A DNA stretch of 64,000 nucleotides, taken from contig JBGPLG010000001.1 of NCBI GenBank assembly GCA_041486305.1, positions 5,544 through 69,543 on the forward strand, read 5' to 3'. The position numbers and the translations under genes were made by a program. The notes under the pieces are model-generated. The model did no database searches, was not told where the DNA came from, and worked only from the letters and a program-made list of their open reading frames with translations. Below are positions 662 through 21,151 of this stretch, one piece after another (within the stretch, counting starts at the first letter, position 1; every line of letters begins with the position of its first letter). Source of the DNA: Gemmatimonadota bacterium (GTDB taxonomy: Bacteria > Gemmatimonadota > Gemmatimonadetes > Gemmatimonadales > GWC2-71-9).

Positions 662-2178
662 CCGGGACCAGGATTCAGGGTTCGGGCGTCAGGGCGTGGG
701 TGGCCTGCCTGGTGGCGGTCACCGGGTGCTCGCCGAACCCGCAGCCGTCGGCTCCTCCGGCGCCGCGGGACGACGGCGCCATTCACGTCATCCTGCTCCA
801 CATCAACGACGTCTACGAGATCACCCCGGTCGAGGCCGGCCGGTCCGGGGGGCTGGCGCGGGTGGCCACGGTGCTGGCCCGGCTCCGGCAGGGCAATCCC
901 GCCACCCGCATGCTGCTGGCCGGTGACTTCGTCTCCCCCTCCGCCCTGGGCACCGCGCGGGTCAACGGCGAGCGGCTGGGCGGGCGGCAGATGATCGCGG
1001 TGCTCAACGCCGCGGGGCTCGACGCCGCCACCCTGGGCAACCACGAGTTCGACATCTCCGAGGCCCAGCTGAGCCAGCGGATCCAGGAGTCGAAGTTCGG
1101 CTATCTGTCCACCAACGTGACCGATTCGGCGGGCCAGCCGCTGCTGGGCATCCCGCGCCACCTGATCATGCGCATCACCGACGCCCGAGGGCGGATCGCG
1201 CGCGTGGCGCTCGTCGCAGCGACGGTGGACCAGGTGCACCGCCCCAACCTCCGCTACCTCCCCAGCGTGGATGCACTGCGCCGGGAGCTGGCGCTGCTCC
1301 GGGACAGTGCCGACGCGTTCGTGGCGCTGACTCATCTCCGCCTCGCGGACGACGTGACCCTGGCCGACTCGCTCCCCGAGCTCGACCTGATCCTGGGCGG
1401 CCATGAGCACGAGAACTGGTCGATCCGCCGGGGCGACCGGTTCACCCCGATCATCAAGGCCGACGCCAACGTGCGCTCGGTGGCGATCGTCGACCTGACC
1501 GTCGGCCCCGGCAGCCGGCCCTTCGTCACCTGGCGCATCGTGACCATCACCGACTCGATCCCGGAAGCACCCCTGGTGGCCGCCGAGGCCCGGCGCTGGA
1601 CTGCGATCGCGTATGACGCATTCCGCAAGGACGGGCTCGAGCCGGAGCGGGTCATCGCCACCCTGCCGGCCCCGCTCGATGCCCGGGAGACGATCATCCG
1701 GAACGGGGAAAACGACTTCTCCCGGCTCCTGACCCAGGCGCTGCTGAAGGAAGCGCCGGACGCCGACCTGGCCCTCATGAACAGCGGTTCGGTCCGGCTG
1801 GACGACATCCTGCCGCCGGGGCCGATCACCGAGTACGACGTGATCCGCCTGCTGCCGTTCGGAGGGAAGACCGTCGAGGTGGAGATGACCGGCGCACTGC
1901 TGCGCCAGGTCCTGGAGCAGGGAGACAAGAATCGCGGCATCGGCGGTTTCCTGCTTCGCGCCGGCGCCGACACCGGGCCGGGAGGCTGGAGCATCGCCGG
2001 ATCACCGCTCGATCCGGAGAAGCGCTACCGGGTGGCCACCACGGACTTCCTGGTGTCGGGCGCGGAGCAGAACCTCGGCTATCTGAGTGAGAAGAACCCC
2101 GGCCTCCGGATGCTTCGCGCCCTGCGCGACATTCGCCTGGTGGTGATCGCCGAGCTGACCAGGCGCTACGGACGCTAG
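658..2178 (+). CDS. bifunctional metallophosphatase/5'-nucleotidase lipoprotein
   Basis: The internal ATG at 658 gives a signal peptide with a lipobox (VTGCSP). GNHEFD and GGHEH metallophosphatase motifs are present, followed by a C-terminal 5'-nucleotidase-like domain. The upstream part of ORF 124..2178 is an R/G-rich artefact. Confidence 0.85.
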   Translation: MTGTRIQGSGVRAWVACLVAVTGCSPNPQPSAPPAPRDDGAIHVILLHINDVYEITPVEAGRSGGLARVATVLARLRQGNPATRMLLAGDFVSPSALGTARVNGERLGGRQMIAVLNAAGLDAATLGNHEFDISEAQLSQRIQESKFGYLSTNVTDSAGQPLLGIPRHLIMRITDARGRIARVALVAATVDQVHRPNLRYLPSVDALRRELALLRDSADAFVALTHLRLADDVTLADSLPELDLILGGHEHENWSIRRGDRFTPIIKADANVRSVAIVDLTVGPGSRPFVTWRIVTITDSIPEAPLVAAEARRWTAIAYDAFRKDGLEPERVIATLPAPLDARETIIRNGENDFSRLLTQALLKEAPDADLALMNSGSVRLDDILPPGPITEYDVIRLLPFGGKTVEVEMTGALLRQVLEQGDKNRGIGGFLLRAGADTGPGGWSIAGSPLDPEKRYRVATTDFLVSGAEQNLGYLSEKNPGLRMLRALRDIRLVVIAELTRRYGR

Positions 2179-2817
2179 CTAACCCGGCAGCCTGATGATC
2201 CCGCGGTCCAGCGCCGTGGTCACGGCGGCGGTCCGGTCCGACACGCCGAGCTTCTGATAGATGTGAAGCAGGTGAGACTTCACCGTCGCCTCCGAGATGC
2301 TGAGCCCCGTCCCGACTTCCTTGTTGCTCTGGCCCGCCGCCACGCGCTGGAGCACTTCGAGCTCGCGGGAGCTGAGCGCCGAGCGGTCCGCGTCGCTCCG
2401 CCGGCTGGAGAGCCGGGCCGCGACGGCGGGAGCCAGCGCGGGGCTTCCCCGCGTCGTAGCCCGGATTCCCCGAAACAGCTCCTCCCGCGGAGCGTCCTTC
2501 AGCAGGTAGCCGGAGGCGCCGGCCTCGATGGCCAGGAGGATATCGGCGTCCGTGTCGTAGGTGGTCAGCACGATGATGCGCACCGCCGACAGCTCCTTCC
2601 GGATCGCCCGGATCGCGGTGACGCCGTCCATTTCCGGCATGCGGAGGTCCATGAGCACCACACCCGGCCGGAGCCGGGCGGCCCGCTCCAGCGCCGCGCG
2701 TCCGTTCTCCGCCTCGCCCACCACCTCGAAGTCCGACTGACTCTCCAGCATGCCGCGGACGCCGGCGCGAACGACGGGGTGATCGTCCACGATGAGAATC
2801 CGGATCACGGCACTCAT
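2179..2817 (-). CDS. NarL/LuxR-family response regulator
   Basis: Starts at MSAVIRILIVDDHP. It has a receiver domain (DLRMPEMDG) and a C-terminal LuxR HTH (ELEVLQRVAAGQSNKEVG). The start overlaps the kinase stop (ATGA). Confidence 0.9.
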   Translation of the reverse strand: MSAVIRILIVDDHPVVRAGVRGMLESQSDFEVVGEAENGRAALERAARLRPGVVLMDLRMPEMDGVTAIRAIRKELSAVRIIVLTTYDTDADILLAIEAGASGYLLKDAPREELFRGIRATTRGSPALAPAVAARLSSRRSDADRSALSSRELEVLQRVAAGQSNKEVGTGLSISEATVKSHLLHIYQKLGVSDRTAAVTTALDRGIIRLPG

Positions 2818-4001
2818 GCGCCGGATTCCACCGGCAGGCTCACCGTGAGGGTGGTTCCCTCGCCGGGCTGGGATTCCAGGATCAGCCGCCCGCCCAGCCC
2901 TCGGACCCGCTCGTCCAGCGCCTTGAGGCCGAAGCCACCGCCACCAGCGGGGCGCCCGCTCCCGATCCCGGCTCCGTCGTCCCTCACGTCGAGCGCGACT
3001 TCGTCCTCCATGTAGCTGAGAGTGACCGTGACGTGGCTGGCCCCGGCGTGGGTCTTCACGTTGTTGAGGGCCTCGCGCGCCGCCTGGAGGATCGCCGTCT
3101 CGCGATTGGGATCGAGCTCGCGGGCCGTGCCGGTCAGGACGTGCCGCCCCCGGACGCCGCTCCGGGCGGACCATTCGGCCAACTGCCGCTCGAGCACCAC
3201 GGTCAGCGGGGCGCCGTCCCGGAGATCGGGCCGGAGGTCCCACACCAGACGGCGGGACGCTTCGAGGCTCTCGCGCGCGAGCGCCTTGGCCTCCGCGACA
3301 TGCCCGGCGATTCCGGGATCGGCGCCCCCCGGCGCGGCTTCGGCCGCTTCGAGGTGCGTGACGATCCCGACGAAGCCCTGGGCCACCGTGTCGTGGATCT
3401 GCTGCGCCAGCCGCTGGCGCTCCGCCTGGATGCCGGCCTGCCGCTCCGCCGCGGCGAGGCTGGCCCGGGTGGACTCCAGTTCATCGATCAGCCGTTTCCG
3501 CTCGATACTCTGCCGGATGATCGAGTGGATGAACAGCGCGAGCATCACCGAGGAGGCCACCGCCAGCAGAATCGCGAGAATGTCGCCCGGGCCGACCCGC
3601 ACCCGCCATCCGTTGCCGGCCAGAAGCATGATGCCCGAGAGCGCGATCCCGCTGGGGATCGAGTAGCGGATGCTGAGCAGCGAGTAGGTAACCGGGAACA
3701 TGAACGCGGCGAATGCGTAGGCCGCCGGATGGAGCGGGAGGATCAGCGCCCAAATGACCAGTCCGAGCAGATAGAAGCCGTACGACCAGGGAAGCGAGGC
3801 GACCAGCCGGGCCCGGCCCAGGCTCTGGATCCCGACGTACCAGATCACCAGAGCCCCGAACAGCGCCCAGAAGTGCGCCGCATCGGGCCATCCCTCCGGC
3901 GCCGAGAATGCCACCGAGAATCCGACGACGACGAACGCCGCCCCGGCCAGCAGGCGCCAGCCGAGGATCCACTGTCGGGACATGTTCGAAGGAGTCGTCA
4001 T
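2814..4001 (-). CDS. sensor histidine kinase, DesK/NarX type (HisKA_3)
   Basis: N-terminal multi-TM region, H-box QQIHDTVAQ, and an HATPase_c region (DDGAGIG, GGFGL). Confidence 0.9.
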   Translation of the reverse strand: MTTPSNMSRQWILGWRLLAGAAFVVVGFSVAFSAPEGWPDAAHFWALFGALVIWYVGIQSLGRARLVASLPWSYGFYLLGLVIWALILPLHPAAYAFAAFMFPVTYSLLSIRYSIPSGIALSGIMLLAGNGWRVRVGPGDILAILLAVASSVMLALFIHSIIRQSIERKRLIDELESTRASLAAAERQAGIQAERQRLAQQIHDTVAQGFVGIVTHLEAAEAAPGGADPGIAGHVAEAKALARESLEASRRLVWDLRPDLRDGAPLTVVLERQLAEWSARSGVRGRHVLTGTARELDPNRETAILQAAREALNNVKTHAGASHVTVTLSYMEDEVALDVRDDGAGIGSGRPAGGGGFGLKALDERVRGLGGRLILESQPGEGTTLTVSLPVESGA

Positions 4002-8709: not shown

Positions 8710-9621
8710 TTACTTCCCGAGTCCGGCCGGTGCCCTGGCCTTTCCTACCGCTCCGGCCAGCGCCAGCAGCGCCAGCGCATAGGGCATCACCAGGAAGAGC
8801 TGATAGGGCACCGCCAGTCCCATGGCCTGGAACGCGAACTGAAGTGCGCTCGCCGCACCGAACAGCAGCGCGGCGAGCAGGACGCCCGCCGGATGCCATC
8901 GCCCCAGCACCACGATGGCGATGGCGATGAAGCCCCGGCCCGCCGTCATCTTCTCGGCGAACGTTCCGACTTGGGCCAGTACCAGGGTCGCGCCGGCCAG
9001 CCCCGCCAGCCCACCCCCCACGAGAGTGGACATGACCTGCACTCGTCTCACCGGAACACCCGACGCCCGTGCCGCCTCGGCCGACTCACCCGTCGCACGG
9101 AGCGCCAGGCCCCACCAGCTCCGGAACAGGAACCACCAGGCCGCCGGAATCAGCAGCCACGCGATGTAAGTGAGCGCTGGCTGGCTGAACAAGGACTGGC
9201 CTATGACGGGAATCGAGGAGATTCCTGGTATCGGCACCACGGCGAAGGTCGGTAGCGTCAGGCCCGGCCCTCCCGAGCCGAAGGCCGTCCTATATAAGGC
9301 CCCGGTCAGTCCCACCGATCCCAGCGTGATCGCGGTGCCGCTGATGATCTGATCGGCCCGGGCGCCGATGGCCACCACGGCGAAGACCCCCGCGACCAGC
9401 ACGCCGGCTACGACCGCCAGAAGGGTCCCGGCCCACGGTCCACCCGCCGCCGCGCCCACCGCCGAGGCCAGCGCCCCGGCAAGCATCGCCCCTTCGACAC
9501 CGAGGTTGATCACACCCGCGCGCTCATTCAGCATTTCCCCGGTGGCCGCCAGGAGCAGCGGGGTCGAGATCCTGATCGACGCGGCGAGGAAGCCGGTCAG
9601 CACCGTCATGTCTTCGGTCAC
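8710..9621 (-). CDS. ABC transporter permease (BMP/nucleoside-sugar type)
   Basis: Multi-TM. The N-terminus STPLLLAATGEMLNERAGVINLGVEG is typical of the RbsC/YufQ family. GTGA overlap with the upstream permease. Confidence 0.85.
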   Translation of the reverse strand: MTEDMTVLTGFLAASIRISTPLLLAATGEMLNERAGVINLGVEGAMLAGALASAVGAAAGGPWAGTLLAVVAGVLVAGVFAVVAIGARADQIISGTAITLGSVGLTGALYRTAFGSGGPGLTLPTFAVVPIPGISSIPVIGQSLFSQPALTYIAWLLIPAAWWFLFRSWWGLALRATGESAEAARASGVPVRRVQVMSTLVGGGLAGLAGATLVLAQVGTFAEKMTAGRGFIAIAIVVLGRWHPAGVLLAALLFGAASALQFAFQAMGLAVPYQLFLVMPYALALLALAGAVGKARAPAGLGK

Positions 9622-10670
9622 GCCGAGTCCTCGGCGGAAATCGCCCGTCCCGCCGCCCGTCGCGCCAGTACTTCGGCCAGGAGTACTGCCAGAATGATCG
9701 TCGCCTCAGCCACCTGCACGGCGACCGCCGGGACACCCGCCTCGCGTTGCATCCCCTGGGCACCGGCCTCGAGCGCGCCGAACAGGATTCCGGTGACGAT
9801 GATCCCCAGCGGGTGGAGCCGCGCAAGAAGTGCCACGGCGATGGCCGTGAATCCATAGCCGGGAGATAGATTCTGAAACAGGGTGTAGGTCACCCCGCTG
9901 ATTTCCACCCCTCCGCCGAGCCCCGCCAGGGCGCCGGACCAGAGTAGAGCCCCCGCCACCACCCGCTTGACCGGGATGCCGCCGCTCACCCGCGCCGCTT
10001 CAGGCCCCATCCCGACCGCCTTGAGGCGAAAGCCCCATCGGGTGCGGGTAAACAGGAGCCAGAGCGCCATCGCCAGGACGACAGCCAGGAGAATGCCCGC
10101 GTGCAGCCTCGATCCCGCCAGGAGCGGCAGCCGCGCCGCCGATGCGATGGGATCGCTCTGGGGGTATACCCGCTTCGCTTCCTGCAGCGGTCCAGTGACG
10201 GCGAAGCTCACCACCGCTTCGGCGACGAAGTTGAGCAGCAACGTCGAGATCACCTCCAATACACCGAATCGGACCTTGAGCAGCACCGGCAGCCCGATCC
10301 AGATCACTCCGGCCACCGCCGCGGCAACCCAGACCGCGCCGACTGCGAGCGCGGAGGGCCAGGCGGCGACATGAATCCCGACCCAGGTGGCGGCGATGGC
10401 TCCCGCGTAGAACTGGCCTTCCCCGCCGATATTGAGCGCTCCCGCGCGAAACGCGAGCGCCACACCCAGCCCGAGCAGGATGAGCGGAACCGCGCGGACC
10501 AGGGTCGCCGAGCTGAACGTGTACCACGATCCGAACGCGCCCCGGCCGAGTGCACCCAGGGCGAGCACCGGGTCGTATCCCGAGGCGGCGAGGCCGATCG
10601 CCAGCACGCCGAACCCTGCGCCGAGCGCGCCGAGTGCCGTGAGAATGGGCCGAAGGCGGTTTCCGCTCAC
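9618..10670 (-). CDS. ABC transporter permease (BMP/nucleoside-sugar type)
   Basis: Multi-TM with the GALNIGGEGQFY motif (YufP-like). Overlaps the ATPase stop. Confidence 0.85.
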   Translation of the reverse strand: MSGNRLRPILTALGALGAGFGVLAIGLAASGYDPVLALGALGRGAFGSWYTFSSATLVRAVPLILLGLGVALAFRAGALNIGGEGQFYAGAIAATWVGIHVAAWPSALAVGAVWVAAAVAGVIWIGLPVLLKVRFGVLEVISTLLLNFVAEAVVSFAVTGPLQEAKRVYPQSDPIASAARLPLLAGSRLHAGILLAVVLAMALWLLFTRTRWGFRLKAVGMGPEAARVSGGIPVKRVVAGALLWSGALAGLGGGVEISGVTYTLFQNLSPGYGFTAIAVALLARLHPLGIIVTGILFGALEAGAQGMQREAGVPAVAVQVAEATIILAVLLAEVLARRAAGRAISAEDSA

Positions 10671-12088
10671 CGGTCCGCGCCCCCCGCTCGCCGTATCCCC
10701 AGCATCATCTCGCCCACGACCCTTCGGTCCGCCCCGCGCGGCGCTTCCGCCACCAGTCCGGCGTGCACCACCAGCACCCGTTGCCCCAGCTCCAACACCT
10801 CGTCGAGGTCAGTACCGTAGATCAGCACCAGAACCCCGGCGCTTGCCGCGGCACGAATCTGTTCGTGCACGAACGCCGTCGCGCGAATGTCCAGACCCCG
10901 CGTGGGATTCTCGGCGACCAGGATTGTGGGGCGGCGTTCCAGCGCGCGCGCCAGGACCACCTTTTGCTGATTCCCGCCCGACAGGGTTCGGACCGCCACA
11001 TCCGGTCCTTCGGCGCGAATCCGGAACGCCTCGATGAGCTCCGCGGCTCGGGCACGGGCCCTGGCCCAGTCGAGGCGCCGCCCCCGGGTCCACCGGGGAT
11101 CGTGGTCGAGCCCCAGCACCAGGTTCTCGGTGATGGACAATTCAGGGATCAATCCTTCGGTGGTTCGGTCCTCGGGCACCAGTGCGACCGAGCCCTGGGC
11201 ACCATCGGTCGGCCGGGTCGCTCGGAGGAGCTCCCGCTGGCCGTTGCGCTCGATGGCCGCAATCCCGACCAGCTCTCCGGCCCGCAGCGGAATACCGCCG
11301 AACCGGGTGACAATCGGTGCGGTCCCGGAGGAACTCGGTGCCGCCGGGGAGATGGGATTCGCGCTCGGCTCCACCGTCGGCCCGATCATCGCGCGAGCCA
11401 GGGTCTCCTCGGTCTGTCCGGCGACGGCGCCCGAGAATGTCACCGTGCCGCGCCGAAGCACCGTCACCCGATCGGCCGCGGTGAATACCTCGCGGAGCTT
11501 GTGGGTGATCAGCGCCGCCGCGCCGCCGCCATCCACGAATTCACGAACCAGGGCAAGAAGCTCTTCGACCTCGCTCGGCGCCAGGACGGCGCTCGGCTCA
11601 TCGAGGAGGAGGACCCCCGCGCCGGTCGCGAGTGCCTTCACAATTTCGAGCCGTTGCCGCTCGACCACCGAGAGCAACTCCACCCGAGTCGAGGCCGGCA
11701 GGTCCGCCATCAGCTTGGCGCGCACGTCGGCTCCGGGGCGTCCATCCCCGTGTCCACCTCCCGGACCGACCGCCAGCGTGATGTTCTCCGAAACCGTCAG
11801 AGCGCCGATCGACGTGAAGTGCTGGTGTACCATGCCGAGTCCCAGCGCCCGCGCCGCGCGGGGCGACCCGATGATCGTGTCCCTGCCGCCGACCCGGATC
11901 GCTCCCGCGTCCGGAGGGATCATGCCATAGGCAATGTGCAGGAGAGTGGACTTACCGGCGCCGTTCTCCCCCAGCAGGGCGTGAACCTCGCCGGCGCGCA
12001 GCGTGAAATCGGCCCCGCGCAGCGCGTGCACGGGGCCGAACGACTTGGAAATCCCATGAAGCTCGAGAACCGACCCCTCCCCGCTCAC
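10667..12088 (-). CDS. ABC transporter ATP-binding protein with duplicated ATPase domains
   Basis: First domain has Walker A GENGAGKST. Second domain has LSGGNQQK and the Walker-B-like region TILVAENPTRGLD. The size fits the RbsA/YufO type. Confidence 0.9.
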   Translation of the reverse strand: MSGEGSVLELHGISKSFGPVHALRGADFTLRAGEVHALLGENGAGKSTLLHIAYGMIPPDAGAIRVGGRDTIIGSPRAARALGLGMVHQHFTSIGALTVSENITLAVGPGGGHGDGRPGADVRAKLMADLPASTRVELLSVVERQRLEIVKALATGAGVLLLDEPSAVLAPSEVEELLALVREFVDGGGAAALITHKLREVFTAADRVTVLRRGTVTFSGAVAGQTEETLARAMIGPTVEPSANPISPAAPSSSGTAPIVTRFGGIPLRAGELVGIAAIERNGQRELLRATRPTDGAQGSVALVPEDRTTEGLIPELSITENLVLGLDHDPRWTRGRRLDWARARARAAELIEAFRIRAEGPDVAVRTLSGGNQQKVVLARALERRPTILVAENPTRGLDIRATAFVHEQIRAAASAGVLVLIYGTDLDEVLELGQRVLVVHAGLVAEAPRGADRRVVGEMMLGIRRAGGADR

Positions 12089-12106
12089 TGCGTCCCGCCC
12101 ACGTTT

Positions 12107-12877
12107 CTACAGTCCCGTAGGGTGATCGTGAAACTCCCAGGGAATTCCGAATCGGGCCGACAAGTGCTCTGCGAGCGCCTTGACCCCGATCGTCTCGGTC
12201 GCGTAGTGCCCCGCGAAAATGGCATTGACACCCAGCTCCATGGCGTCGAAGTAGGTGTGATGCGGGCCTTCCCCGGTCAGGTACGCATCGAGCCCCGCCC
12301 GGGCCGCCGCGGGAATCCGGTCGCCCGCCCCCCCGGTGATGATCCCGACTCGACGAACCGTTACCGGACCGCCGGGAATCAGCCTGGCCGTCGAGCCGAG
12401 CACTTCCTCCACCCGTGCCACCAGCCGGTTCCGGGGCATCTCCGCCTCGAGGGTGCCCTGCACCCCGATCGGAGTACCCCGGTATAGGTCAAATGGCTCC
12501 AGCTCCCCGAGCCCGATCCGCCGGGCCAGCTCGTGATTGTTGCCGACGTCGGGGTGAATATCCAGGGGGATGTGGGCGGAGTAGAGGGCAATGTCTCCGT
12601 CGAAGAGGGTTCGAACCCGAAGGTACCGTCGCCCGGTGAGCGGGATATTCCCGTCCCAGAAGAGTCCGTGATGCACCACAAGAAGGGCCGCTCCGCGAGA
12701 CACGCCCTCGATCGTGGCCAGCGACGCGTCCACCGCCGCCACGATCCGGCCTACCAGTCCGGACCGGTTCTGGGCCTGAAGGCCATTGACGGCGTTCGCC
12801 TCGTCCGGAACCTCGCCGATTCGGAGGTACTGGTCGAGATAGGCGGCGATCGTGTCGAGCGGAACGGGACCGGACAT
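12107..12877 (-). CDS. Nif3-like dinuclear metal-centre protein (GTP cyclohydrolase 1 type 2 family)
   Basis: The start at MSGPVPLDTIAAYLDQ (12877) is preferred. Conserved VVHHGLFW and ITGEGPHH segments are present. Confidence 0.85.
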   Translation of the reverse strand: MSGPVPLDTIAAYLDQYLRIGEVPDEANAVNGLQAQNRSGLVGRIVAAVDASLATIEGVSRGAALLVVHHGLFWDGNIPLTGRRYLRVRTLFDGDIALYSAHIPLDIHPDVGNNHELARRIGLGELEPFDLYRGTPIGVQGTLEAEMPRNRLVARVEEVLGSTARLIPGGPVTVRRVGIITGGAGDRIPAAARAGLDAYLTGEGPHHTYFDAMELGVNAIFAGHYATETIGVKALAEHLSARFGIPWEFHDHPTGL

Positions 12878-12905
12878 TTCGCGAAGAATAACCGGCCCCT
12901 CCCCT

Positions 12906-14987
12906 CTAGCGCCTGCAATCGTACACCGGCGTCGCAACCGCCAGATCCCAGGTGGGACCGATCGGTCCCTCGTAGACCGTCGCCATCTGCCGGTTACGCA
13001 TGATCACCACCTGGGTCGTGCCTTCGAGGAGTTTCCACAGTCCGATCTCCAGGTCACCGTCCTTGATGAGCCCGGAACGGCGTTCAACATAATTGTTCTT
13101 GTCAACCAGATGGTTGTAGAGGTTATCGAAGTATGTCTGGGCCGCCGGCTCGTTCTTGAAGGCCAGCGTTATCCCCGAGACGACGGTTCCATCGGCCGCC
13201 AGGTACTCCGCCTCGATGGCATCGTTGATGACGTCGTCCAGCGACTCCGGAAGGTTGTGGATGGACTTGCGGTCGAAGCGCCCCCGCCGGCAACTGGTGT
13301 GATCGATCAGCGGACCGCTCGAAGGGGTGGCTTTCTGCTGCGCGATCGCCGGAGGAGCATGCACCGCCTTGATGAAATCCGGCCCGCTACAGTCCCGGCC
13401 TTCGACCCCTTCGGTGAATGCGTCGATCCGCTGCCCCCCGGACCCATGCGCGCCGCTCTGGAACCACTCCACCCCCAGCGGGTCCTTCATTTCGAGCAGG
13501 GCGGTCACGGCCTCGTTCTGGTCTCCCGCATCGAGAAACCCCTTCGTTTTCGCATCCCGGGTCCATCGCCCCGCAAGACAGTCTGCCCCCAGCTCGGTCT
13601 CGAGGCTCCACTTCCCCGCCAGTGGACCCAGCTCACCGCGGAGATCCTGGACCAGATGCCCCCATTCGTGCGCCAGGACGAAGGCCGCGGCAAAATCTCC
13701 GTTCCCTTTCCACAGTCTCTGGAGCAAGCCTGCATCGTAATAGATGTGACGGTCGCCTCGGCAATACGTTGCGTTGTTGGTCCGGGGCGGGCAGGATAGC
13801 GAGAACATGGAGTAGGGCCCCACATCAGCCGGAGGACGATAAGTGGTGCCGAGCTGGAAGCTCCAATACCCATTAATGAGCCGCCGGCTGCCGGCCACGA
13901 GGGAATCGAGATTGGCCCAGTTGTCTCGGGCGAGCGAGACGGCCTGCTTTCCCGCCCCGAGAACGACCGCTCCCACCAGCACCACGACGATGACAGCCAG
14001 GGTATGCGCGTGGCGGATGACCCGCCGGATCAGCGCGGCCTGCGCCTCCATTCGGGTACGCTGCGCAGGGCTGCTCTCACGGGCTGCGCGGTGCTTGAGC
14101 AGCGCCAGTTGAACCTGCCGGTTGTGCAGCGCGGCCAAGTGCAGACACTGACCGACCCGGCCCCTGACCAGCAGCCGCAGATAGCTGAACTGGCGGCGCC
14201 AGAAGCTGTCCAGTAACGCAACCTCCTCGGCGGAAACGACGCCGGCGTCGGCCTCCTCCGCCAATTGCGCCCGTAGGACCCGTCGCTCCCGGGTGAGCGA
14301 GAATAGGCCGACTCCGACCAGCAGGAGCAGGGGAAGTAGCACCGCCAGCCACGCGCGGAAATGGCCCTCCGCTCCACCGAGCCCATTGCCATGAGCCAGG
14401 ATTCGAAAGAGGCCGTTGAGCAGCGTCGCGCCGGCGAGGCCCACGATGGCCCAGAGCCCCTCAGCCAGTCGTCCCCGGGCATCGAACGCCGCGCCGATAC
14501 CCAGGCCGGCCACGGCGGCAAAGACGCCGTGGGACAGTCCCCCGGCCGCGGCGTTGAGCGCGGTCTGGAGCGGCGAGGTCCCTGCGTGAAGGGCGATGAG
14601 GTGCGCGGTCTGAAGCTCGCGCACCAGGGTTTCTCCCGTGCTGTACCCCAGCCCAACGGCGATGCCGTAGATGATGCCGTCGGTCAGGTCGCTGAATTCC
14701 GACCACCCCCGGATGCGGGACACCGCGGAGAAGATCCCGATGCCCGCCAGGAGAGAGATGAGCTTGGTCGCTTCGACCGCAAACGCCCCGTGCCAGATCG
14801 AGCCGTTCAGCGCCTCCGATCCGATGAAGAGCTCTGCCACGCACGCGCCCAGCAGACCGAGCCCGAATACGGTCGCAAGGGCCCAGACCGGCTCCCGTTC
14901 GTTGACGTCCACGAACCGGACGAAGGTCAGGTAGATCCAGGCGACCCCAACGGTGATCAGGATCTCGCCCAGATAGCCGACGGGCAT
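12906..14987 (-). CDS. fusion protein: N-terminal PrsW-family intramembrane protease domain plus C-terminal YpfJ-like neutral zinc metallopeptidase domain
   Basis: The N-terminal multi-TM region carries PrsW-like motifs (FVDVNEREP, AVEATK, GLGYSTGE, HGVFAA). After a linker and a further TM helix, the C-terminal region has YCRGDRHIYYD, AHEWGHLVQ, ELGADCLAG and GAHGSGGQR, as in the Zn_peptidase/YpfJ family. A strong GAAGGAGG Shine-Dalgarno lies upstream. Confidence 0.75.
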   Translation of the reverse strand: MPVGYLGEILITVGVAWIYLTFVRFVDVNEREPVWALATVFGLGLLGACVAELFIGSEALNGSIWHGAFAVEATKLISLLAGIGIFSAVSRIRGWSEFSDLTDGIIYGIAVGLGYSTGETLVRELQTAHLIALHAGTSPLQTALNAAAGGLSHGVFAAVAGLGIGAAFDARGRLAEGLWAIVGLAGATLLNGLFRILAHGNGLGGAEGHFRAWLAVLLPLLLLVGVGLFSLTRERRVLRAQLAEEADAGVVSAEEVALLDSFWRRQFSYLRLLVRGRVGQCLHLAALHNRQVQLALLKHRAARESSPAQRTRMEAQAALIRRVIRHAHTLAVIVVVLVGAVVLGAGKQAVSLARDNWANLDSLVAGSRRLINGYWSFQLGTTYRPPADVGPYSMFSLSCPPRTNNATYCRGDRHIYYDAGLLQRLWKGNGDFAAAFVLAHEWGHLVQDLRGELGPLAGKWSLETELGADCLAGRWTRDAKTKGFLDAGDQNEAVTALLEMKDPLGVEWFQSGAHGSGGQRIDAFTEGVEGRDCSGPDFIKAVHAPPAIAQQKATPSSGPLIDHTSCRRGRFDRKSIHNLPESLDDVINDAIEAEYLAADGTVVSGITLAFKNEPAAQTYFDNLYNHLVDKNNYVERRSGLIKDGDLEIGLWKLLEGTTQVVIMRNRQMATVYEGPIGPTWDLAVATPVYDCRR

Positions 14988-15077
14988 TGAGGGCCTCCTT
15001 CAGGGAACGACGTCTCGAGTGGTCGGGGGTGGAGCAGGGGAGAACTTACCCGTTGTGCGGAAAAGCGTTAGCCGTCC

Positions 15078-16043
15078 TTAGGGCACCGCCTTGAGGGTGC
15101 CCGCAACCAGGGAATCCGCCGCGGCCCTGACCCACGCCGCGAGTGCCGGGGAAATCCGGTTCGCCAGCCGGGGGTTGGCCTCGTAGCGCAGCACCCCGCC
15201 GGCCAGCCCGAATGATTCCACTCTCGGCGCGAAACTTCCCTCCTTGACCTTTCGGGCGATGGCCAGAAACGCCCGGGGCAGGTCGATCACCACGGAACCC
15301 ACGACGCGATCGGGGGCCAGGGCGGTTTGATCGGCATTGGCGCCGAACGCATAGGCTCCCGGACTCTCCTTCACCGCCTGGAACAGTCCCAGTGCGGCTT
15401 GGTCCGCGTTGTGGTGCAGCATGTCGACACCCACGCGGATCATCGCCAGAGCCGCCTCGCGACCCGCCGCCGCGTCATCGAACGTATTGAGATACGCAAC
15501 CCGGCTGTCCACGGCCGGGTTCACCGCCTTGGCCCCGTGGAGCCAGCCTTCATAGCCTCGCTTGATGGGGGGCAGCTCGATTCCGCCGATGAAACCGATC
15601 TTGTTGGTTCTGGTCAGGCCCCCGGCAACCATACCGGCCAGGTACGTCCCCTCTTCGATGCCGAACACCATGGGAACTACGTTCCCCGCCGCCGATACCC
15701 GCTCTCCCGAAGTGACGACGAAGATCGTCTTCGGATACTCCGCTCCGATCCGCTCTGCAGGCCCCTGGAATTCGAAACCGTGCCCGAAGACCACGTCGTA
15801 GCCCTGCTCGGCGTAGGCCCGGAGCGCTTCCTGCTGCGCTCCGGGAGTTCGAGCCTCGACGTGGCTGATTTCGACGTGGAGTGAATCCCGGATGGCGATG
15901 AGCCCTGCATAGGCCCCGGAGTTCCATGCGGCGTCGGCAATGGAGCCCGGCGTGATGAGCGCGACGCGAAAGGCCCCCGCCGCACCGGGCTTCTGGCCAC
16001 AGGCAACGAGGGCGAGAATAAGAAGGGAAAGAACGCGGATCAT
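15078..16043 (-). CDS. BMP-family ABC transporter substrate-binding lipoprotein
   Basis: Lipobox LVACG. The body resembles the Med/PnrA basic-membrane-protein family (ITPGSIADAAWNSGAYAG). Confidence 0.9.
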   Translation of the reverse strand: MIRVLSLLILALVACGQKPGAAGAFRVALITPGSIADAAWNSGAYAGLIAIRDSLHVEISHVEARTPGAQQEALRAYAEQGYDVVFGHGFEFQGPAERIGAEYPKTIFVVTSGERVSAAGNVVPMVFGIEEGTYLAGMVAGGLTRTNKIGFIGGIELPPIKRGYEGWLHGAKAVNPAVDSRVAYLNTFDDAAAGREAALAMIRVGVDMLHHNADQAALGLFQAVKESPGAYAFGANADQTALAPDRVVGSVVIDLPRAFLAIARKVKEGSFAPRVESFGLAGGVLRYEANPRLANRISPALAAWVRAAADSLVAGTLKAVP

Positions 16044-16077: not shown

Positions 16078-16488
16078 TTACGGCTCGCTGCTCCCCGCGG
16101 TCACGCTTTCCATCTTCACCCCCCCGTTGACCTGGCCGCCCTCCTGAATCAGCAACCGGCAGGTCGCGATGTCACCATGCACCACGGCGGTGGCCTGCAG
16201 CTCGACCCGCTCCTCCCCGTGAATGCACCCGTGCACCCTCCCGGCCACTACCGCTTCGCGCGTCACCACGTCGCCCTCGACGATGCCACCCTCCGAGATC
16301 AGCACCTGATCGCCGGCGTGCACATTGCCGATCACCCGTCCCTCGATCCGGACCACGCCCTCGGCCTGCAGATCGCCGGCGATGGTGAGATCCTTCGCGA
16401 CGATCGACAGCCCGCCCTGCGCGCCGTTCATTCGGCGGCGTTCGATGGGCGGAGCCGCGGTGGTCGAGGGTGCCGAGAAGATGCCCAT
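16078..16488 (-). CDS. bactofilin (polymer-forming cytoskeletal protein)
   Basis: 136 aa with the repetitive beta-helix pattern of DUF583 (IAGDLQAEGVVRIEGRVIGNVHAGDQVLISEGGIVEGDV...). Its start shares 1 nt with the M23 stop (TGATG). Confidence 0.9.
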   Translation of the reverse strand: MGIFSAPSTTAAPPIERRRMNGAQGGLSIVAKDLTIAGDLQAEGVVRIEGRVIGNVHAGDQVLISEGGIVEGDVVTREAVVAGRVHGCIHGEERVELQATAVVHGDIATCRLLIQEGGQVNGGVKMESVTAGSSEP

Positions 16489-17282
16489 CAGTGTTCCTCC
16501 TTCACCATCGTGCCGGGATCGATCGAGACCCCGTTGAGCCGGATCTCGAAATGAAGATGTGGTGCCGATGACCGGCCGGTGTTGCCGCTTCGGGCAATCA
16601 CCTCGCCGGCGTTCACCCGAGCCCCCTGAACCGCGATGATCCGGGACAAGTGGCCATACATCGACTGATACCCGTCCGGGTGCTCGAGGAGCACAAAACG
16701 CCCGTACTGCTCATGTTCTCCGGTCTGCAGGACGATGCCCCCGCCGGAGGCCCGGACCAGGCTTCCTACCGGTACTGCGATATCGATGCCAGGGTGCTCG
16801 TCCTGGGTGGTATCCGCAAGCGCCTGGCCCCGCGTGACATAGCCGCGCTCATCAAGAGGCCAGTGCCGGGGAGTGGAGGAGCCGATCTCGTAAACTGCCC
16901 CGGAATCCGGGCCGGCCGCGAAGAGGGCCGGAGCCACCGGGAGCGAGCTGCCGAGCATGACGGGGTCGGGGACGATGTCGGCGCCCACCATCTTGCGGAG
17001 TCGTTCGTAGTTCATCTCCAGGCTGTCCATTGCGACCGCCAGTTCGCGGACCCGGAGATTGTCGGTGCGCAGGCGGTCTACCTCACGCTCCAGTGGTGGG
17101 ACCCGCAACGCCTGCCGCGCGATGGGCCCGTAGAAGGCGACGCCCAGCACCAGCAGAACTGTGAGGACCACGCCGAGGATCAGCGCACCGCGCAACGCCC
17201 AGACCGGAATCCGGTAGGTGCTGGACTGAAGCGCCCCGTCCCGCTGCACAATGATGGAGACGCTGCGCCGCCAGCCGATCAT
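16488..17282 (-). CDS. bitopic M23-family metallopeptidase (LmdC-like architecture)
   Basis: Short N-terminal cytoplasmic tail, one TM helix (ALILGVVLTVLLVLGVAFY), a coiled-coil-like linker, and an M23 domain with HPGIDI and APHLHFE catalytic motifs. Confidence 0.9.
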   Translation of the reverse strand: MIGWRRSVSIIVQRDGALQSSTYRIPVWALRGALILGVVLTVLLVLGVAFYGPIARQALRVPPLEREVDRLRTDNLRVRELAVAMDSLEMNYERLRKMVGADIVPDPVMLGSSLPVAPALFAAGPDSGAVYEIGSSTPRHWPLDERGYVTRGQALADTTQDEHPGIDIAVPVGSLVRASGGGIVLQTGEHEQYGRFVLLEHPDGYQSMYGHLSRIIAVQGARVNAGEVIARSGNTGRSSAPHLHFEIRLNGVSIDPGTMVKEEH

Positions 17283-18178
17283 CCTCCGAAGGGCTCGCCC
17301 AGGATGAGCTCGAGCAGGCGCGCCAGATCCTCGTTCGAGTAGTAGTGAATGGTGACCGCGCCGCGACCCCGCCGCCGGGCGGTCACCCGGACATCGGTCT
17401 GCAGCCGCTTGCGCAGCGAGTCTTCGACCCGTCGCACGTCGGCGCTGGGATTCCTTGCTTCGGCCTTGGGCCGCCGGATTGTCCGGCGCACCACCGGAAT
17501 CTCGGTGAGGCGCTCACCCCGCACCCGCGCCTCGAGATCGCGCACCGACCACTCGGCCGCGGCGCATTCCCGCCCGAGACGCGTCATTTCCCTCAGATCG
17601 GAAAGCGACAGCAGCGCGCGGGCGTGACCTTCCGAGAGCTTCCGGTGCTGCAGCAGGTCCTGTACCTCCTGCGGAAGCCGGAGCAGCCGGAGCGTATTGC
17701 TGACCGTCGAGCGGTCTTTCCCGACCAGCCGCGCCACTTCCTGCTGCGGCATGGAGAACTCCTGCATCAGGCGCTGATAGCCCATCGCCGCGTCGATCGG
17801 CGAGAGATCGTCGCGCTGCAGGTTCTCGATCAGGGCCAACGTGAGCAGGGCGCGGTCATCGACGTCCTTCACCACCGCGGGGACCTTCTGCCAGCCCAGC
17901 CGCTGTATCGCACGATAGCGGCGCTCGCCTGCGATCAGCTCGTAACGACCGTCAGGCCTCGAACGCACCACGATCGGCTGCAGCAGCCCGGAGGCCGCGA
18001 TGGAATCCGCCAGCTCCTTGAGTTGGGCTTCGTCGAACTCTCGCCTCGGCTGATAGGGATTGGGCCCGATCGAGGACACCGCGAGCTCTCGAAGACCCCC
18101 ATTCGCCTGCGCATCTTCCCGGGTGATCGGACCGAGCAACGCCTCGAGGCCACGTCCCATCCGCCTGGTCTCGGTCAT
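17279..18178 (-). CDS. parB: chromosome partitioning protein ParB/Spo0J
   Basis: GRGLEALL N-terminus, ParB box (LIENLQRDDLSP), HTH region. ATGA overlap with parA. Confidence 0.95.
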   Translation of the reverse strand: MTETRRMGRGLEALLGPITREDAQANGGLRELAVSSIGPNPYQPRREFDEAQLKELADSIAASGLLQPIVVRSRPDGRYELIAGERRYRAIQRLGWQKVPAVVKDVDDRALLTLALIENLQRDDLSPIDAAMGYQRLMQEFSMPQQEVARLVGKDRSTVSNTLRLLRLPQEVQDLLQHRKLSEGHARALLSLSDLREMTRLGRECAAAEWSVRDLEARVRGERLTEIPVVRRTIRRPKAEARNPSADVRRVEDSLRKRLQTDVRVTARRRGRGAVTIHYYSNEDLARLLELILGEPFGG

Positions 18179-19017
18179 GTATGTACCTCCCCCGTGGCAC
18201 GGGCGGTTCCGTGAGGCAATTCGATGTCGCCGGCCGAGTCGGATGCTTCGGCCCGGCGAAGCAGCTCCTGCGCAACCGACAAGTAGCTCTTGGCGCCCAC
18301 CGACTGCACGTCATACATCAGGATCGGCTTGCCGAAGCTGGGCGCCTCGGCGAGACGAACGTTCCGTGGAATGACGGTCTTGAAGACCTTGGCACCGAAG
18401 TACTCCTTTGCGTCCTTTGCCACCTGACGGCAGAGATTGAGCCGCGAATCGTACATGGTGAGCAAGACCCCGTCGAGCGCCAGCTCGGGATTGAAGTTCT
18501 GCTGCACCAGACGAATGGTGTTGAGCAGCTGCGAGATTCCCTCGAGCGCGTAGTACTCGCATTGAATCGGAACGATCACGCCGTGCGCCGCCGAAAGGAC
18601 GTTGAGCGTGATCAGGCCGAGGGAGGGAGGACAATCGATGATGATGTAGTCGAAAGACGCCAGCGCGGGGCGCAAGGCCTCACGCATTCTGGCCTCGCGC
18701 TTCTCGACGTTTACCAACTCCAACTCGGCACCGACCAAGTCCTGTGTCGCTGGAAGAATCGAAAGGAAAGGAAGCTCCGCGTCTTGCTGAATGACTTCGT
18801 GAATCGGCCGACGGTCCACCAGGAGATCATAGAGCGAGGGCCGAGACGGATCCTTGGCCACACCAACACCGCTCGTTGCGTTGCCCTGAGGGTCCGCATC
18901 GACCAGCAAGGTGCGCCGCTCGGCGATGGCCAGGGAAGCGGCCAGGTTAACGGCCGTTGTAGTCTTCCCTACCCCGCCCTTTTGATTGGCGATCGCAACA
19001 ATACGGGCCATTGCCAT
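18175..19017 (-). CDS. parA: chromosome partitioning ATPase ParA/Soj
   Basis: Deviant Walker A (ANQKGGVGKTTT) and full-length Soj-like sequence. Confidence 0.95.
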   Translation of the reverse strand: MAMARIVAIANQKGGVGKTTTAVNLAASLAIAERRTLLVDADPQGNATSGVGVAKDPSRPSLYDLLVDRRPIHEVIQQDAELPFLSILPATQDLVGAELELVNVEKREARMREALRPALASFDYIIIDCPPSLGLITLNVLSAAHGVIVPIQCEYYALEGISQLLNTIRLVQQNFNPELALDGVLLTMYDSRLNLCRQVAKDAKEYFGAKVFKTVIPRNVRLAEAPSFGKPILMYDVQSVGAKSYLSVAQELLRRAEASDSAGDIELPHGTARATGEVHT

Positions 19018-19121
19018 ATCACGTAACTATATGTTTTGAAAGAAGTTATAACTAGAACTACCGGGACCTTCATGCGTCGGTGTTTAACAATATACCTGTT
19101 TGGCGGTTACTGTGCTAGGCT

Positions 19122-19137
19122 GGTTTCACGTGAAACG
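19122..19137. other. parS centromere-like site 1 (GGTTTCACGTGAAACG)
   Basis: 14/16 match to the canonical parS TGTTNCACGTGAAACA. The core GTTTCACGTGAAAC is perfect. It lies about 105 bp upstream of parA. Confidence 0.85.
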
Positions 19138-19262
19138 GTACAATTACCTGCGGCTTGGAAGCAAACACAACAATGGTGGACCAGGAATGGGGGAACGCAA
19201 GGATGTTTCTCACACCGAGGGAACCGAGCTCCCGGGGAATCCGCTCACTACCAGGCATTGTC

Positions 19263-19278
19263 GGTTTCACGTGAAACC
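19263..19278. other. parS centromere-like site 2 (GGTTTCACGTGAAACC, perfect palindrome)
   Basis: It has the same 14-bp core as site 1 and lies 141 bp from it, 20 bp from the mnmG stop. Confidence 0.85.
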
Positions 19279-19297
19279 GGCCTTGGTAACCAGGATC

Positions 19298-21151
19298 CTA
19301 TCCTCTGATCTTGAGCACCTCCATGACCAAGTTCTGCAAATCGCTGGGTGAGACGCCCGGGATTCTCCCCGCTTGTCCGAGGCTGGAGGGGCGCTGTCGC
19401 GTCAGCTTCTCTCGGGCCTCGAAGGAGAGGCTCTCCAAGGAATGAAACTCGAGCCATCCAGGGATGCTGAACTCCTCCATCTCCAGCATCTTGCCGGCCA
19501 TATCTCGCTCCCGTTCCATGTATCCACCGTACCGGAGCTCGATGGCGGCCCATTCCTCAGCTCCTCCGGTGGATTCGAATCCCGATGCACCCAGGAGTTG
19601 CTGCAGCTCAACTGCTGGTCGCCGAGCGAGTTCCGCTAGCCGTACGGGCTCCGCGATGGCTGCTGAACCTGCGGCTTCAAGGACCGGGTTGGCGAGTGAA
19701 GGGGGGATGGGGGTCTCCACCGCGAATGTCATGACTGCTTCCTCGGCCGCCATCCTCGATTCCGCTGTGTGCCTTTCCGCCTCCGAGAGCAATCCCAGTC
19801 GCAGGGCGGTCGGGAAGAGGCGCCGAAGTGCGTTGTCCTGGCGGAGGATCAACCGGAACTCCGCGCGGGATGTAAAGAGGCGGTAGGGCTCGTCTACCCC
19901 GCGAGTCACGAGGTCGTCCACAAGCACACCGAGAAATGCTTCATCCCGACGAAAGCGGACTGGGGCCTGGTCCAGAGCGGAGGCGGCCGCGTTCAATCCA
20001 GCCACCACGCCTTGTCCTGCGGCCTCTTCGTACCCCGTCGTACCATTGATCTGCCCCGCGAAATACAGCCCGTCGACACCCCGAACCCTGAGGGTCGGTT
20101 CAAGTTGGGTGGGGGGGAAATAGTCGTACTCAATCGCATAGCCGGGCCGAGTCATTTCGACCTGCTCGAGTCCCGGCACGGAGCGCAGGTACTCGAGTTG
20201 TACGCCGGGCGGGAGGGAGGTGGAAAGGCCGTTGACGTACATCTCCGTGGTGTCGAGCCCTTCCGGTTCGAGAAAGACCTGATGCCGAAGCGCGTCGGGG
20301 AATCGCACGATCTTGTCTTCGATCGAGGGGCAGTACCGGGGCCCGCGTCCGCTGATGGCTCCGCCATACATGGCAGACTCGGACAGGTGTGCGGTGATGA
20401 TGTCCCTGAGGCGCTCATTCGTATGGGTCAGGTAGCAGGGCATTTGGGCAGGATGTTCGGCGCGCTCGTAAAAGGAGAACCAGTAGGGACGCTTCTCTCC
20501 GTCCTGCCGCGCCAGCGAGGCCAGGTTTGCCGTTCGCCCGTCGATCCGCGGGGGCGTTCCGGTCTTGAAGCGTTCGACTGTAACACCAATATTCACAATG
20601 GCTTGCGATATCTCTACGGAAGGGGCTTCACCGGCCCGGCCCGCCGGTACCGGAGTAGCCAGTCCCATGTGGATCTGACCTCTCAGAAACGTGCCGGCGG
20701 TAATCACAATCGAACGAGCCGAGTATCGTCGACCGTCGGTGGTCTCGACACCGGCGATCCGGGTTCCTTCAAAAAAGAACCGCGCCGCCGTTCCCTGGGC
20801 GAACCGGAGGTTCGGCCGTCGCTCGAGGAGCGTGCGCACCGCGCGGCGGTAGAGTCCCCGGTCGCACTGTGATCGGGGTGACCAGACCGCCGGTCCCTTC
20901 GAGCGATTGAGCATGCGGAACTGGATCCGGGCCATGTCGGTCGCTCGCCCCATAATCCCGCCCAGCGCATCGACTTCACGCACCACGGTGCCCTTGGCGA
21001 TGCCCCCAATGGCCGGGTTGCACGACATCTGCCCGATCGTCTCCAGGTGTTGGGTCAGCAAAAGCGTCCGAGCCCCGGACCGCGCGGCCATCGCGCAGGC
21101 CTCGGTGCCGGCGTGCCCTCCCCCAATCACCAGAACATCGTAGCGGTCCAT
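19298..21151 (-). CDS. mnmG: tRNA uridine 5-carboxymethylaminomethyl modification enzyme MnmG (GidA)
   Basis: FAD-binding N-terminus (DVLVIGGGHAGTEA) and full-length GidA similarity. Confidence 0.96.
   Translation of the reverse strand: MDRYDVLVIGGGHAGTEACAMAARSGARTLLLTQHLETIGQMSCNPAIGGIAKGTVVREVDALGGIMGRATDMARIQFRMLNRSKGPAVWSPRSQCDRGLYRRAVRTLLERRPNLRFAQGTAARFFFEGTRIAGVETTDGRRYSARSIVITAGTFLRGQIHMGLATPVPAGRAGEAPSVEISQAIVNIGVTVERFKTGTPPRIDGRTANLASLARQDGEKRPYWFSFYERAEHPAQMPCYLTHTNERLRDIITAHLSESAMYGGAISGRGPRYCPSIEDKIVRFPDALRHQVFLEPEGLDTTEMYVNGLSTSLPPGVQLEYLRSVPGLEQVEMTRPGYAIEYDYFPPTQLEPTLRVRGVDGLYFAGQINGTTGYEEAAGQGVVAGLNAAASALDQAPVRFRRDEAFLGVLVDDLVTRGVDEPYRLFTSRAEFRLILRQDNALRRLFPTALRLGLLSEAERHTAESRMAAEEAVMTFAVETPIPPSLANPVLEAAGSAAIAEPVRLAELARRPAVELQQLLGASGFESTGGAEEWAAIELRYGGYMERERDMAGKMLEMEEFSIPGWLEFHSLESLSFEAREKLTRQRPSSLGQAGRIPGVSPSDLQNLVMEVLKIRG

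Follow-up and report, generated by a model that had tools for sequence, protein, structure and literature searches.

In the 64,000-nucleotide (nt) stretch of the Gemmatimonadota contig JBGPLG010000001.1 (assembly GCA_041486305.1, positions 5,544 to 69,543; the whole of it is called the window below), a single open reading frame (ORF) encodes a protein of 693 amino acids (aa), in which a membrane domain of the PrsW family is joined to a zinc metallopeptidase domain (zincin) of the YpfJ type. This covalent fusion of two protease types, claimed in the original prediction, is real and conserved in Gemmatimonadota. The protein is built of four modules, not two: a PrsW-like domain with seven transmembrane (TM) helices, a cytoplasmic helical domain and, beyond an eighth helix (TM8), the zincin and a PsbP-like domain. 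The PrsW plus zincin picture thus stood, but the helical and PsbP-like domains had been overlooked. The explanation that accounts best for the observations, to which a probability of about one in two is given, is that the product would be a membrane-tethered periplasmic zinc endopeptidase, in which the domain derived from PrsW is a platform for docking, gating or regulation and not a second protease.

Both domain assignments lie above the curated Pfam cut-offs. PF13367 (PrsW-protease) matches residues 32–217 (E = 4.4e-9; 36.6 bits against a gathering cut-off of 23.5), and PF04228 (Zn_peptidase) matches residues 406–530 (E = 7.3e-15; 55.7 bits against 23.2; profile positions 136–281 of 290), or scores 60.1 bits when the isolated zincin domain is used. 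Scores against the NCBIfam equivalogs are far under the cut-offs, namely 20.4 bits against 225 for PrsW of the B. subtilis type (NF033739) and 68 bits against 250 for YpfJ (NF050010, “HExGHH”), so that the protein is placed in both superfamilies without being an ortholog of either prototype. Among 5.8 billion proteins searched, 22 full-length homologues were found (42–100% identity), all annotated with PF13367 and PF04228, and a profile run on 1.84 billion cluster representatives yielded further fused clusters; classification with hidden Markov models (HMMs) of the four modules gave 25 complete fusions. The homologues, of identical architecture, originate from separate NCBI, JGI, ENA and Logan assemblies, and among species-representative genomes the fused gene is present in metagenome-assembled genomes (MAGs) of Gemmatimonadota. 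Because 25 fused homologues come from independent assemblies, the junction is genuine, and the worry about an assembly artefact that accompanied the original prediction is settled. Some automatic annotations already name both halves, e.g., [quoted passage not shown] In the literature searched, no paper describing the PrsW-zincin architecture was found, in line with the earlier remark that such a fusion was not recognized. The PrsW-YpfJ-PsbP-like architecture appears to be undescribed, as do the split operon that corresponds to it and the wider module treated below; each of the domain families is already known, as is the tendency of PrsW domains to bear C-terminal modules. Coordinates are collected in Table 1; a Shine-Dalgarno ribosome-binding site, GAAGGAGG, lies 6 nt 5′ of the ATG of the ORF.

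Table 1. Coordinates in the window of the fusion gene and of the parts of its product.
Feature	Residues	Position (nt)	Strand	Basis or remark
Whole ORF	1–693	12906–14987	minus	ATG at 14987, TAG at 12906–12908; uninterrupted; full-length homologues
PrsW-like 7-TM domain, N-terminus outside	1–231	14295–14987	minus	Pfam, helices, hydropathy, mapping on B. subtilis PrsW, conservation
Conserved cytoplasmic helical domain	232–328	14004–14294	minus	conservation, hydropathy, model
TM8	329–346	13950–14003	minus	hydropathy, model
Extracytoplasmic YpfJ-type gluzincin	356–535	13383–13922	minus	PF04228 55.7–60.1 bits, NF050010 68 bits, invariant columns, model
Zincin motif H440-E441-W-G-H444	440–444	13656–13670	minus	
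Zincin motif E465xxxD469	465–469	13581–13595	minus	
C-terminal Mog1/PsbP/DcrB-like alpha/beta domain	556–693	12909–13322	minus	Foldseek, Cys covariation, no Pfam family

The two halves very likely work together, because relatives encode them as overlapping or abutting genes on the same strand. When HMMs for the four modules were run on all fetched loci, adjacent same-strand ORFs were found in six Vicinamibacterales MAGs (L012, L014–L017, L033) and in two Gemmatimonadota MAGs (L020, L034). In these, the first gene (~330 aa) covers the PrsW-like domain and the helical segment (PrsW+linker), and the second (~355–400 aa) encodes a Sec-type signal peptide followed by the zincin and the PsbP-like domain. 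The stop codon of the first gene and the GTG start of the second overlap by 4 nt (GTGA) at L012 (11008/11005) and L034 (2101/2098), which is the usual signature of translational coupling, and the same pair, either with the 4-nt overlap or abutting, is found in the unfused representatives L073, L074, and L083/84. An exception is L018, with a convergent arrangement of the two genes and 1.5 kb between them. Since the pair is conserved across Gemmatimonadota and Acidobacteriota amid flanking genes that vary by locus, what is conserved is the two-gene unit, of which the gene in the window is the fused form, namely a “Rosetta-stone” fusion of a conserved two-gene module. TM8 stands where the separate partner has its Sec signal peptide and appears to be the former signal peptide of that gene.

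Furthermore, the gene pair has probably been fused more than once. In a neighbor-joining tree of the PrsW+linker region (111 sequences, without support values), one clade unites 23 fused proteins and has the unfused L018/P0028 as its sister, and P0026 (a fusion with two members from separate contigs) and the fused P0027 (a singleton) nest among the split systems, a placement that suggests at least three independent zincin fusions. Together with the adjacent same-strand genes in relatives, the apparently repeated fusion strongly supports the functional coupling of the halves that had originally been proposed.

Two Gemmatimonadota MAGs carry the fused gene broken across frames inside the zincin domain (L008, 917–3178; L009, 9323–11528); these breaks are probably assembly indels or pseudogenes, and the fragments (P0298, P0299) cluster with the intact P0012. 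Some split-system partners (L034 at 2098–3312, P0078, P0092, P0094, and P0129) have an Asp-rich segment, DxDxDG..D..D.CP...NGF.D.DGCPD, between signal peptide and zincin, which we take to resemble the calcium-binding repeats of thrombospondin type 3 or OmpA-like proteins.

The zincin is the half on which the favored explanation puts the catalysis. The original prediction assigned the C-terminal ~330 residues to YpfJ, whose motifs, HEWGH included, are indeed present, but the zincin itself covers only about residues 356–535 and the last ~140 aa form a separate domain. In 21 of 21 sequences, H440, E441, H444, E465, and D469 do not vary, nor does H514 of the A513-H514-G515 motif. HExxH with a downstream ExxxD is the signature of gluzincins, and E465 would be the downstream zinc ligand. 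The motif reads HEWGHL, not HExGHH, the second His of the HH pair being absent. The YpfJ prototype, KPN_02809 of K. pneumoniae, binds one zinc ion and hydrolyzes casein; it is inhibited by ethylenediaminetetraacetic acid, phenanthroline and dithiothreitol and is inactivated by the HExxH mutations H171S and E172D. The zincin of the fusion is very probably active and, judged from its residues, looks to be the only half with a complete active site. Neither a sequence profile search of the PDB nor a Foldseek search with the model of the periplasmic half found a solved relative of it. As to physiology, no role or substrate of YpfJ-type zincins was found in the literature searched, although zincins occur in several phyla among the loci retrieved; an insertion in ypfJ of Y. 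pestis leaves the turnover of PsaE unaffected.

The periplasmic half, modeled alone, reaches a mean predicted local distance difference test score (pLDDT) of 91.7 and a predicted template-modeling score (pTM) of 0.86, and the predicted structure packs the zincin against the C-terminal Mog1/PsbP-like domain. The best Foldseek match of the latter is TM1622 (1vr8; E = 9.8e-4, probability 1.0, target-normalized template-modeling score 0.52), followed by weaker matches to Apa (5zxa), PsbP (4rth), DcrB (6e8a), Dip2269, and MTC28 (4pws). A Foldseek search with the whole-protein model gave no significant match.

Sequence and model predict an inner-membrane protein with eight TM helices. The additional helix after the linker, noticed originally, is there as TM8, and a short variable tether connects it with the zincin. 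The “charged linker” ahead of it is confirmed as a segment and in its charge (18 K/R against 9 D/E), but it is not a mere linker: this conserved helical domain, modeled with block pLDDT values of ~80–86, has invariant or near-invariant residues (E234, R265, Y269, H288, R290, Q293, R321) that are also conserved in unfused relatives, and is found in all of the latter including 72 stand-alone PrsW+linker proteins. No credible Pfam family was found at E-values up to 10 for either this domain or the C-terminal one. Seven helices ahead of the cytoplasmic segment place the N-terminus outside, in agreement with the published topology of PrsW. The C-terminal half is assigned to the extracytoplasmic side because the separate-gene relatives start with a typical Sec signal peptide, because four cysteines (C399, C409, C470, C533) are invariant and C566 and C691 covary perfectly (both in 16 sequences, neither in five, a single one in none), and because the segment preceding TM8 is positively charged.

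The membrane domain shows the blocks of the PrsW family that had been noticed, i.e., DVNEREP (27–33), xE72xxK75, D103G..YG...GLGYxxxE119 and H153, but the canonical catalytic set is incomplete, the HxxxD of the sixth helix being replaced by N191xxxR195 (nt 14403–14417). Published PrsW motifs are E75E76xxK79, F110xxxE114, H138, and H175xxxD/N179. In B. subtilis, PrsW with H175A is non-functional (PMC12943098), and so is the double mutant E75A/E76A, the only mutant of these glutamates tested there. An hhalign comparison of the unfused-clade profile with authentic B. subtilis PrsW (probability 96%, E = 1.7e-9) equates E75 with V71, E76 with E72, K79 with K75, E114 with E119, H138 with H153, H175 with N191, and D179 with R195, and H191 and Y194 of the unfused relatives agree with the register at position 191. 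A pairing of H175 with H199, given by hhalign with the 21 fused sequences alone, required an 11-residue gap inside TM6; it was dropped since the deeper profile of unfused relatives puts H175 at position 191 and H199-G-N lies within a clade-specific loop insertion.

In this register, motif 1 of the window protein reads V71-E72-A-T-K75; the first Glu is kept in only six of the 25 zincin fusions, and Glu72 and Lys/Arg75 in all 25. Motifs 2 and 3 are present as Y115xxxE119 and H153 (E/D at position 119 in 21/25, His153 in 19/25). Position 191 of motif 4 is Asn in 13 zincin fusions, Asp in 12, and His in none. Elsewhere, His191 is common: it is found in 8 of 11 split systems with zincin and C-terminal domain, in 38 of the remaining 59 unfused members, and in six of six zincin-less long fusions. 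The independently fused P0026 and P0027 have Asp191, and their nearest unfused relatives have His. By this alignment, the essential histidine of PrsW appears to be lost in the window protein. A general tie between fusion per se and loss of His191 was rejected on account of the six His-bearing zincin-less fusions; only the zincin fusions are uniformly without His. The strictest conservation throughout the clade is on the cytoplasmic side, in the loops DVNEREP and RGWSE (93–97), at D103-G104 and in the helical domain.

There are also systems without the zincin. Stand-alone PrsW+linker proteins account for 72 of the top 150 representatives, and the more divergent of these have, tightly linked downstream, a gene for a single-pass protein with a PsbP-like domain and no zincin (E = 4.7e-10 in L080/81, 9e-8 in L079, 4.4e-4 in L082). 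Direct fusions of PrsW+linker, TM8 and a PsbP-like domain exist as well (P0023, P0029, P0066), and the tails of six longer zincin-less proteins match the C-terminal domain in hhalign (probability 94%, E = 1.2e-7). In Gaiellales, a gene for a YpfJ-like lipoprotein is located directly upstream of a gene for a PrsW+linker-like protein with a TM helix and a tail. This survey indicates that the regular partner of PrsW+linker is the PsbP-like ectodomain and that the zincin is an accessory recruited more than once. A general linkage between YpfJ and PrsW was considered and rejected, as the flanks examined of ~45 stand-alone YpfJ-like loci, mostly of Chloroflexota, contain no PrsW-like ORF.

A zinc ribbon (CxxC...CxxC) recurs on the cytoplasmic side of the module: it is at the N-terminus of single-pass PsbP-like partners (L078, 1333–1644; L079, 3993–4808), and P0162, a PrsW+linker protein without TM8, ends in one (Pfam Zn_Ribbon_1, E = 3.2e-9). 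Upstream of the YpfJ-lipoprotein/PrsW pair of Gaiellales, there is a gene for a conserved secreted protein of ~465–516 aa (L064, 7552–8949; L070, 3860–5410) with the HExxH-containing sequence AAHELVHNLG or TTHELVHNLG, which may be a third metalloprotease of the cluster. Two Chloroflexia MAGs carry three tandem YpfJ-like genes of ~460–500 aa each (L039, 9131–13824, with the third copy frame-broken; L042, 9152–13733), and nine database proteins, e.g., P0090 and P0104, have two Zn_peptidase domains per chain.

In the favored explanation, the periplasmic zincin would be the only fully competent protease and would probably act on envelope or membrane proteins by cutting them in extracytoplasmic segments close to the membrane. 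The PrsW-derived domain, from which the essential His is gone and in which a polar pocket in the outer leaflet seems to be retained (E72, K75, E/D119, H153, N/D191), would position the zincin and the PsbP-like unit at the membrane surface. The pocket may still bind a peptide segment, and the likely regulatory or coupling face would be made up of the cytoplasmic helical domain together with the loops that are invariant on that side.

Several points weigh against this explanation. E72 and K/R75 are invariant, H153 is present in 19 of the 25 fusions and residue 191 is always Asn or Asp, never small or hydrophobic; the conservation at 72, 75, and 191 argues that selection acts on the polar pocket, in which catalysis by a modified mechanism could take place. 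Six zincin-less fusions, made of PrsW+linker, TM8 and a short PsbP-like domain, keep His191, so that an active PrsW domain is compatible with ectodomain fusion. The tree is unbootstrapped and contains few independent fusion events, and the whole-protein model, with a pTM of 0.51 against 0.86 for the periplasmic half, does not fix the mutual orientation of the halves. Finally, no conserved neighbor, such as a gene for an extracytoplasmic function (ECF) sigma factor, an anti-sigma factor or a site-2 protease, was found at the loci compared, and none points to a substrate. The prsW gene of B. subtilis is presumably not adjacent to sigW-rsiW either, and an absent neighbor is therefore weak evidence.

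The same pocket is the starting point of another explanation, which comes close to the two active proteases of the original prediction: the PrsW-like domain would be active via E72, E119, H153, and N191 and make a juxtamembrane cut of the site-1 type in a single-pass protein, e.g., an anti-sigma factor, and the zincin would trim the stub for the site-2 protease. Further extracytoplasmic trimming is reportedly needed before RasP acts. Such a dual protease is favored by E72, K75 and a polar residue 191 being strictly conserved, with H153 mostly kept, and also by the predicted depth of the pocket residues, which by helix position lie ~8–14 residues from the periplasmic ends of the helices on the side of the zincin. 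Most split systems combine His191 with a zincin partner, and PrsW of B. subtilis cuts the extracytoplasmic domain of RsiW between Ala168 and Ser169 (PMC8767453). However, the equivalent of H175, a residue without which B. subtilis PrsW does not function, is missing in 25 of 25 zincin fusions, those of E75 and D179 are gone as well, the score against the PrsW equivalog is under one-tenth of its cut-off, and no ECF sigma or anti-sigma gene adjoins the fusion gene in the window or at three other fused loci (L075–L077). A dual protease is rather unlikely, and proteolysis in two steps by two active proteases is not supported in the form first proposed.

A further possibility is that the membrane domain cleaves its own chain, or the split partner, and frees the zincin with its PsbP-like unit as a soluble effector, either periplasmic or secreted. 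Zhang et al. (2012) infer autoproteolytic release for the N-terminal PrsW domains of polymorphic toxins, to which C-terminal effector domains are fused, and the partner of the PrsW+linker gene is always exported or single-pass. Against this, a Sec signal peptide of its own spares the split partner any need of PrsW for export, the C-terminal modules are conserved and not polymorphic, no immunity-like gene follows, the PADLOC models of anti-phage defense gave no match, and it is just the zincin fusions that lack the catalytic His; autoprocessing is improbable. It is more improbable still that two neighbors with independent functions were meaninglessly joined by stop loss or a sequencing frameshift, which a single indel at the 4-nt GTGA overlap could easily cause and which the frameshifted MAG copies and the singleton P0027 recall, given fusions with identities down to 42% that recur in independent assemblies, a pair kept across Gemmatimonadota and Acidobacteriota in differing surroundings, an ectodomain partner retained throughout the PrsW+linker family, and a YpfJ gene adjoining a related PrsW protein in Gaiellales.

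If the explanation of a tethered zincin on a PrsW-derived platform is extended to all these systems, a joint reading is possible, which is offered tentatively as a whole. The module would be an undescribed and widespread one of the envelope, in which a tethered periplasmic zincin has taken over catalysis from an intramembrane protease. Its core would be a 7-TM protein of a PrsW subfamily with the cytoplasmic helical domain, always paired or fused with a single-pass or secreted PsbP-like ectodomain protein. The YpfJ-type zincin would have been recruited at least twice, into the partner in Gemmatimonadota/Acidobacteriota and as a neighboring lipoprotein gene in Gaiellales, and the catalytic His would have been lost in every zincin-fused lineage, leaving a pseudoprotease that holds clients or the former substrate. 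If this were true, the orphan YpfJ family would gain its first physiological context. The comparative evidence of a conserved and repeatedly fusing operon pair speaks strongly for one PrsW and one YpfJ subfamily working together in a complex at the membrane surface, and the uniform loss of the PrsW His in the zincin fusions is a possible natural case of the passage from a protease to a pseudoprotease scaffold. The analysis also delineates the cytoplasmic helical domain and the PsbP-like ectodomain as two so far unannotated families of domains, and two poorly understood protease families gain a testable functional link, although the finding, as a domain fusion, is not startling.

[quoted passage not shown] It shares with the window protein PF13367, the 7-TM layout with the N-terminus outside, the outer-leaflet pocket and the blocks D..E.EP (loop), ExxK (TM3), DG..YG...GLGF...E (TM4) and His (TM5). 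The window protein is distant from it, with E75 changed to Val, H175 to Asn, and D179 to Arg and with a 9-residue loop insertion after TM6; it adds the cytoplasmic helical domain, TM8 and two periplasmic domains, and has no sigW/rsiW-like genes nearby. The neutral zinc metallopeptidases of the YpfJ/KPN_02809 family likewise have HExxH with downstream ExxxD, four conserved cysteines and an extracytoplasmic domain behind an N-terminal hydrophobic segment. Unlike its members, to none of which it is an ortholog, the window protein has HEWGHL, an entire PrsW-like protein in place of a single helix as the anchor, and a PsbP-like domain following the zincin.

Alike in overall plan are the fusions treated by Zhang et al. 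(2012), in which an N-terminal PrsW domain is combined with C-terminal toxin domains or with PilZ, cyclic nucleotide-binding (cNMP), FHA, or Zn-ribbon modules, the cytoplasmic Zn-ribbon type being matched by the relative P0162. In contrast to these, the window protein carries a conserved protease and a PsbP-like domain beyond an extra TM helix and has lost the catalytic His; its module is neither a polymorphic toxin nor a cytoplasmic signaling domain, and a YpfJ fusion is not mentioned in the accessible text. A PrsW-dependent polymorphic toxin would not fit with its conserved C-terminus, the lack of a conserved downstream gene or of the catalytic His, and the signal peptide of the partner.

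APH-1 of gamma-secretase, which is in one superfamily with PrsW/CPBP, and the iRhoms serve as non-catalytic scaffolds and come from superfamilies of intramembrane proteases. Like the window protein, they have a protease-derived multi-TM domain without a catalytic residue beside an active protease, a likeness that is an analogy only. APH-1 has been cited as a member of the PrsW superfamily (PMC4602095); its partner is an intramembrane aspartyl protease, unlike the soluble-type zincin here, and the loss of PrsW activity in the window protein is presumed. The Mog1/PsbP/DcrB-like periplasmic domains (1vr8, 4rth, 6e8a, 5zxa, 4pws) share the predicted fold class of the C-terminal domain and have no detectable sequence similarity to it; their function in bacteria is generic binding, which predicts little.

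The surroundings of the fusion gene are shared narrowly: the order M23 peptidase, bactofilin, Bmp, fusion, NIF3, ABC is common only to ~80%-identical relatives, and a promoter/terminator scan was uninformative. Large exported peptidases flank the fused gene at three loci unrelated to each other, L075 (4533–6854), L077 (8816–11143), and L076 (2037–5243), being of the dipeptidyl peptidase IV/S9 type (~775 aa) in two of the three and of the Tricorn/S41 type in the third; no such peptidase adjoins the gene in the window, and the pattern may reflect peptidase-rich genomes. In the window, an operon for a Bmp/PnrA-type ATP-binding cassette (ABC) transporter on the minus strand (8710–16043) is interrupted: the substrate-binding gene (15078–16043) is separated from the genes for the ATPase (10667–12088) and the permeases (9618–10670, 8710–9621) by the fusion gene and a NIF3/DUF34 gene (12107–12937). 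The relatives L001 and L002 (~80% identical) have the same order with ~3.2 kb extra between the fusion gene and NIF3. Further along the same strand (16078–21151), there is an origin-region-like cluster with mnmG/gidA (19298–21151), parA (18175–19017) and parB (17279–18178), and directly after parB follow genes for an M23 peptidase (16488–17282) and a bactofilin (16078–16488), which may constitute a cytoskeletal or cell-wall module.

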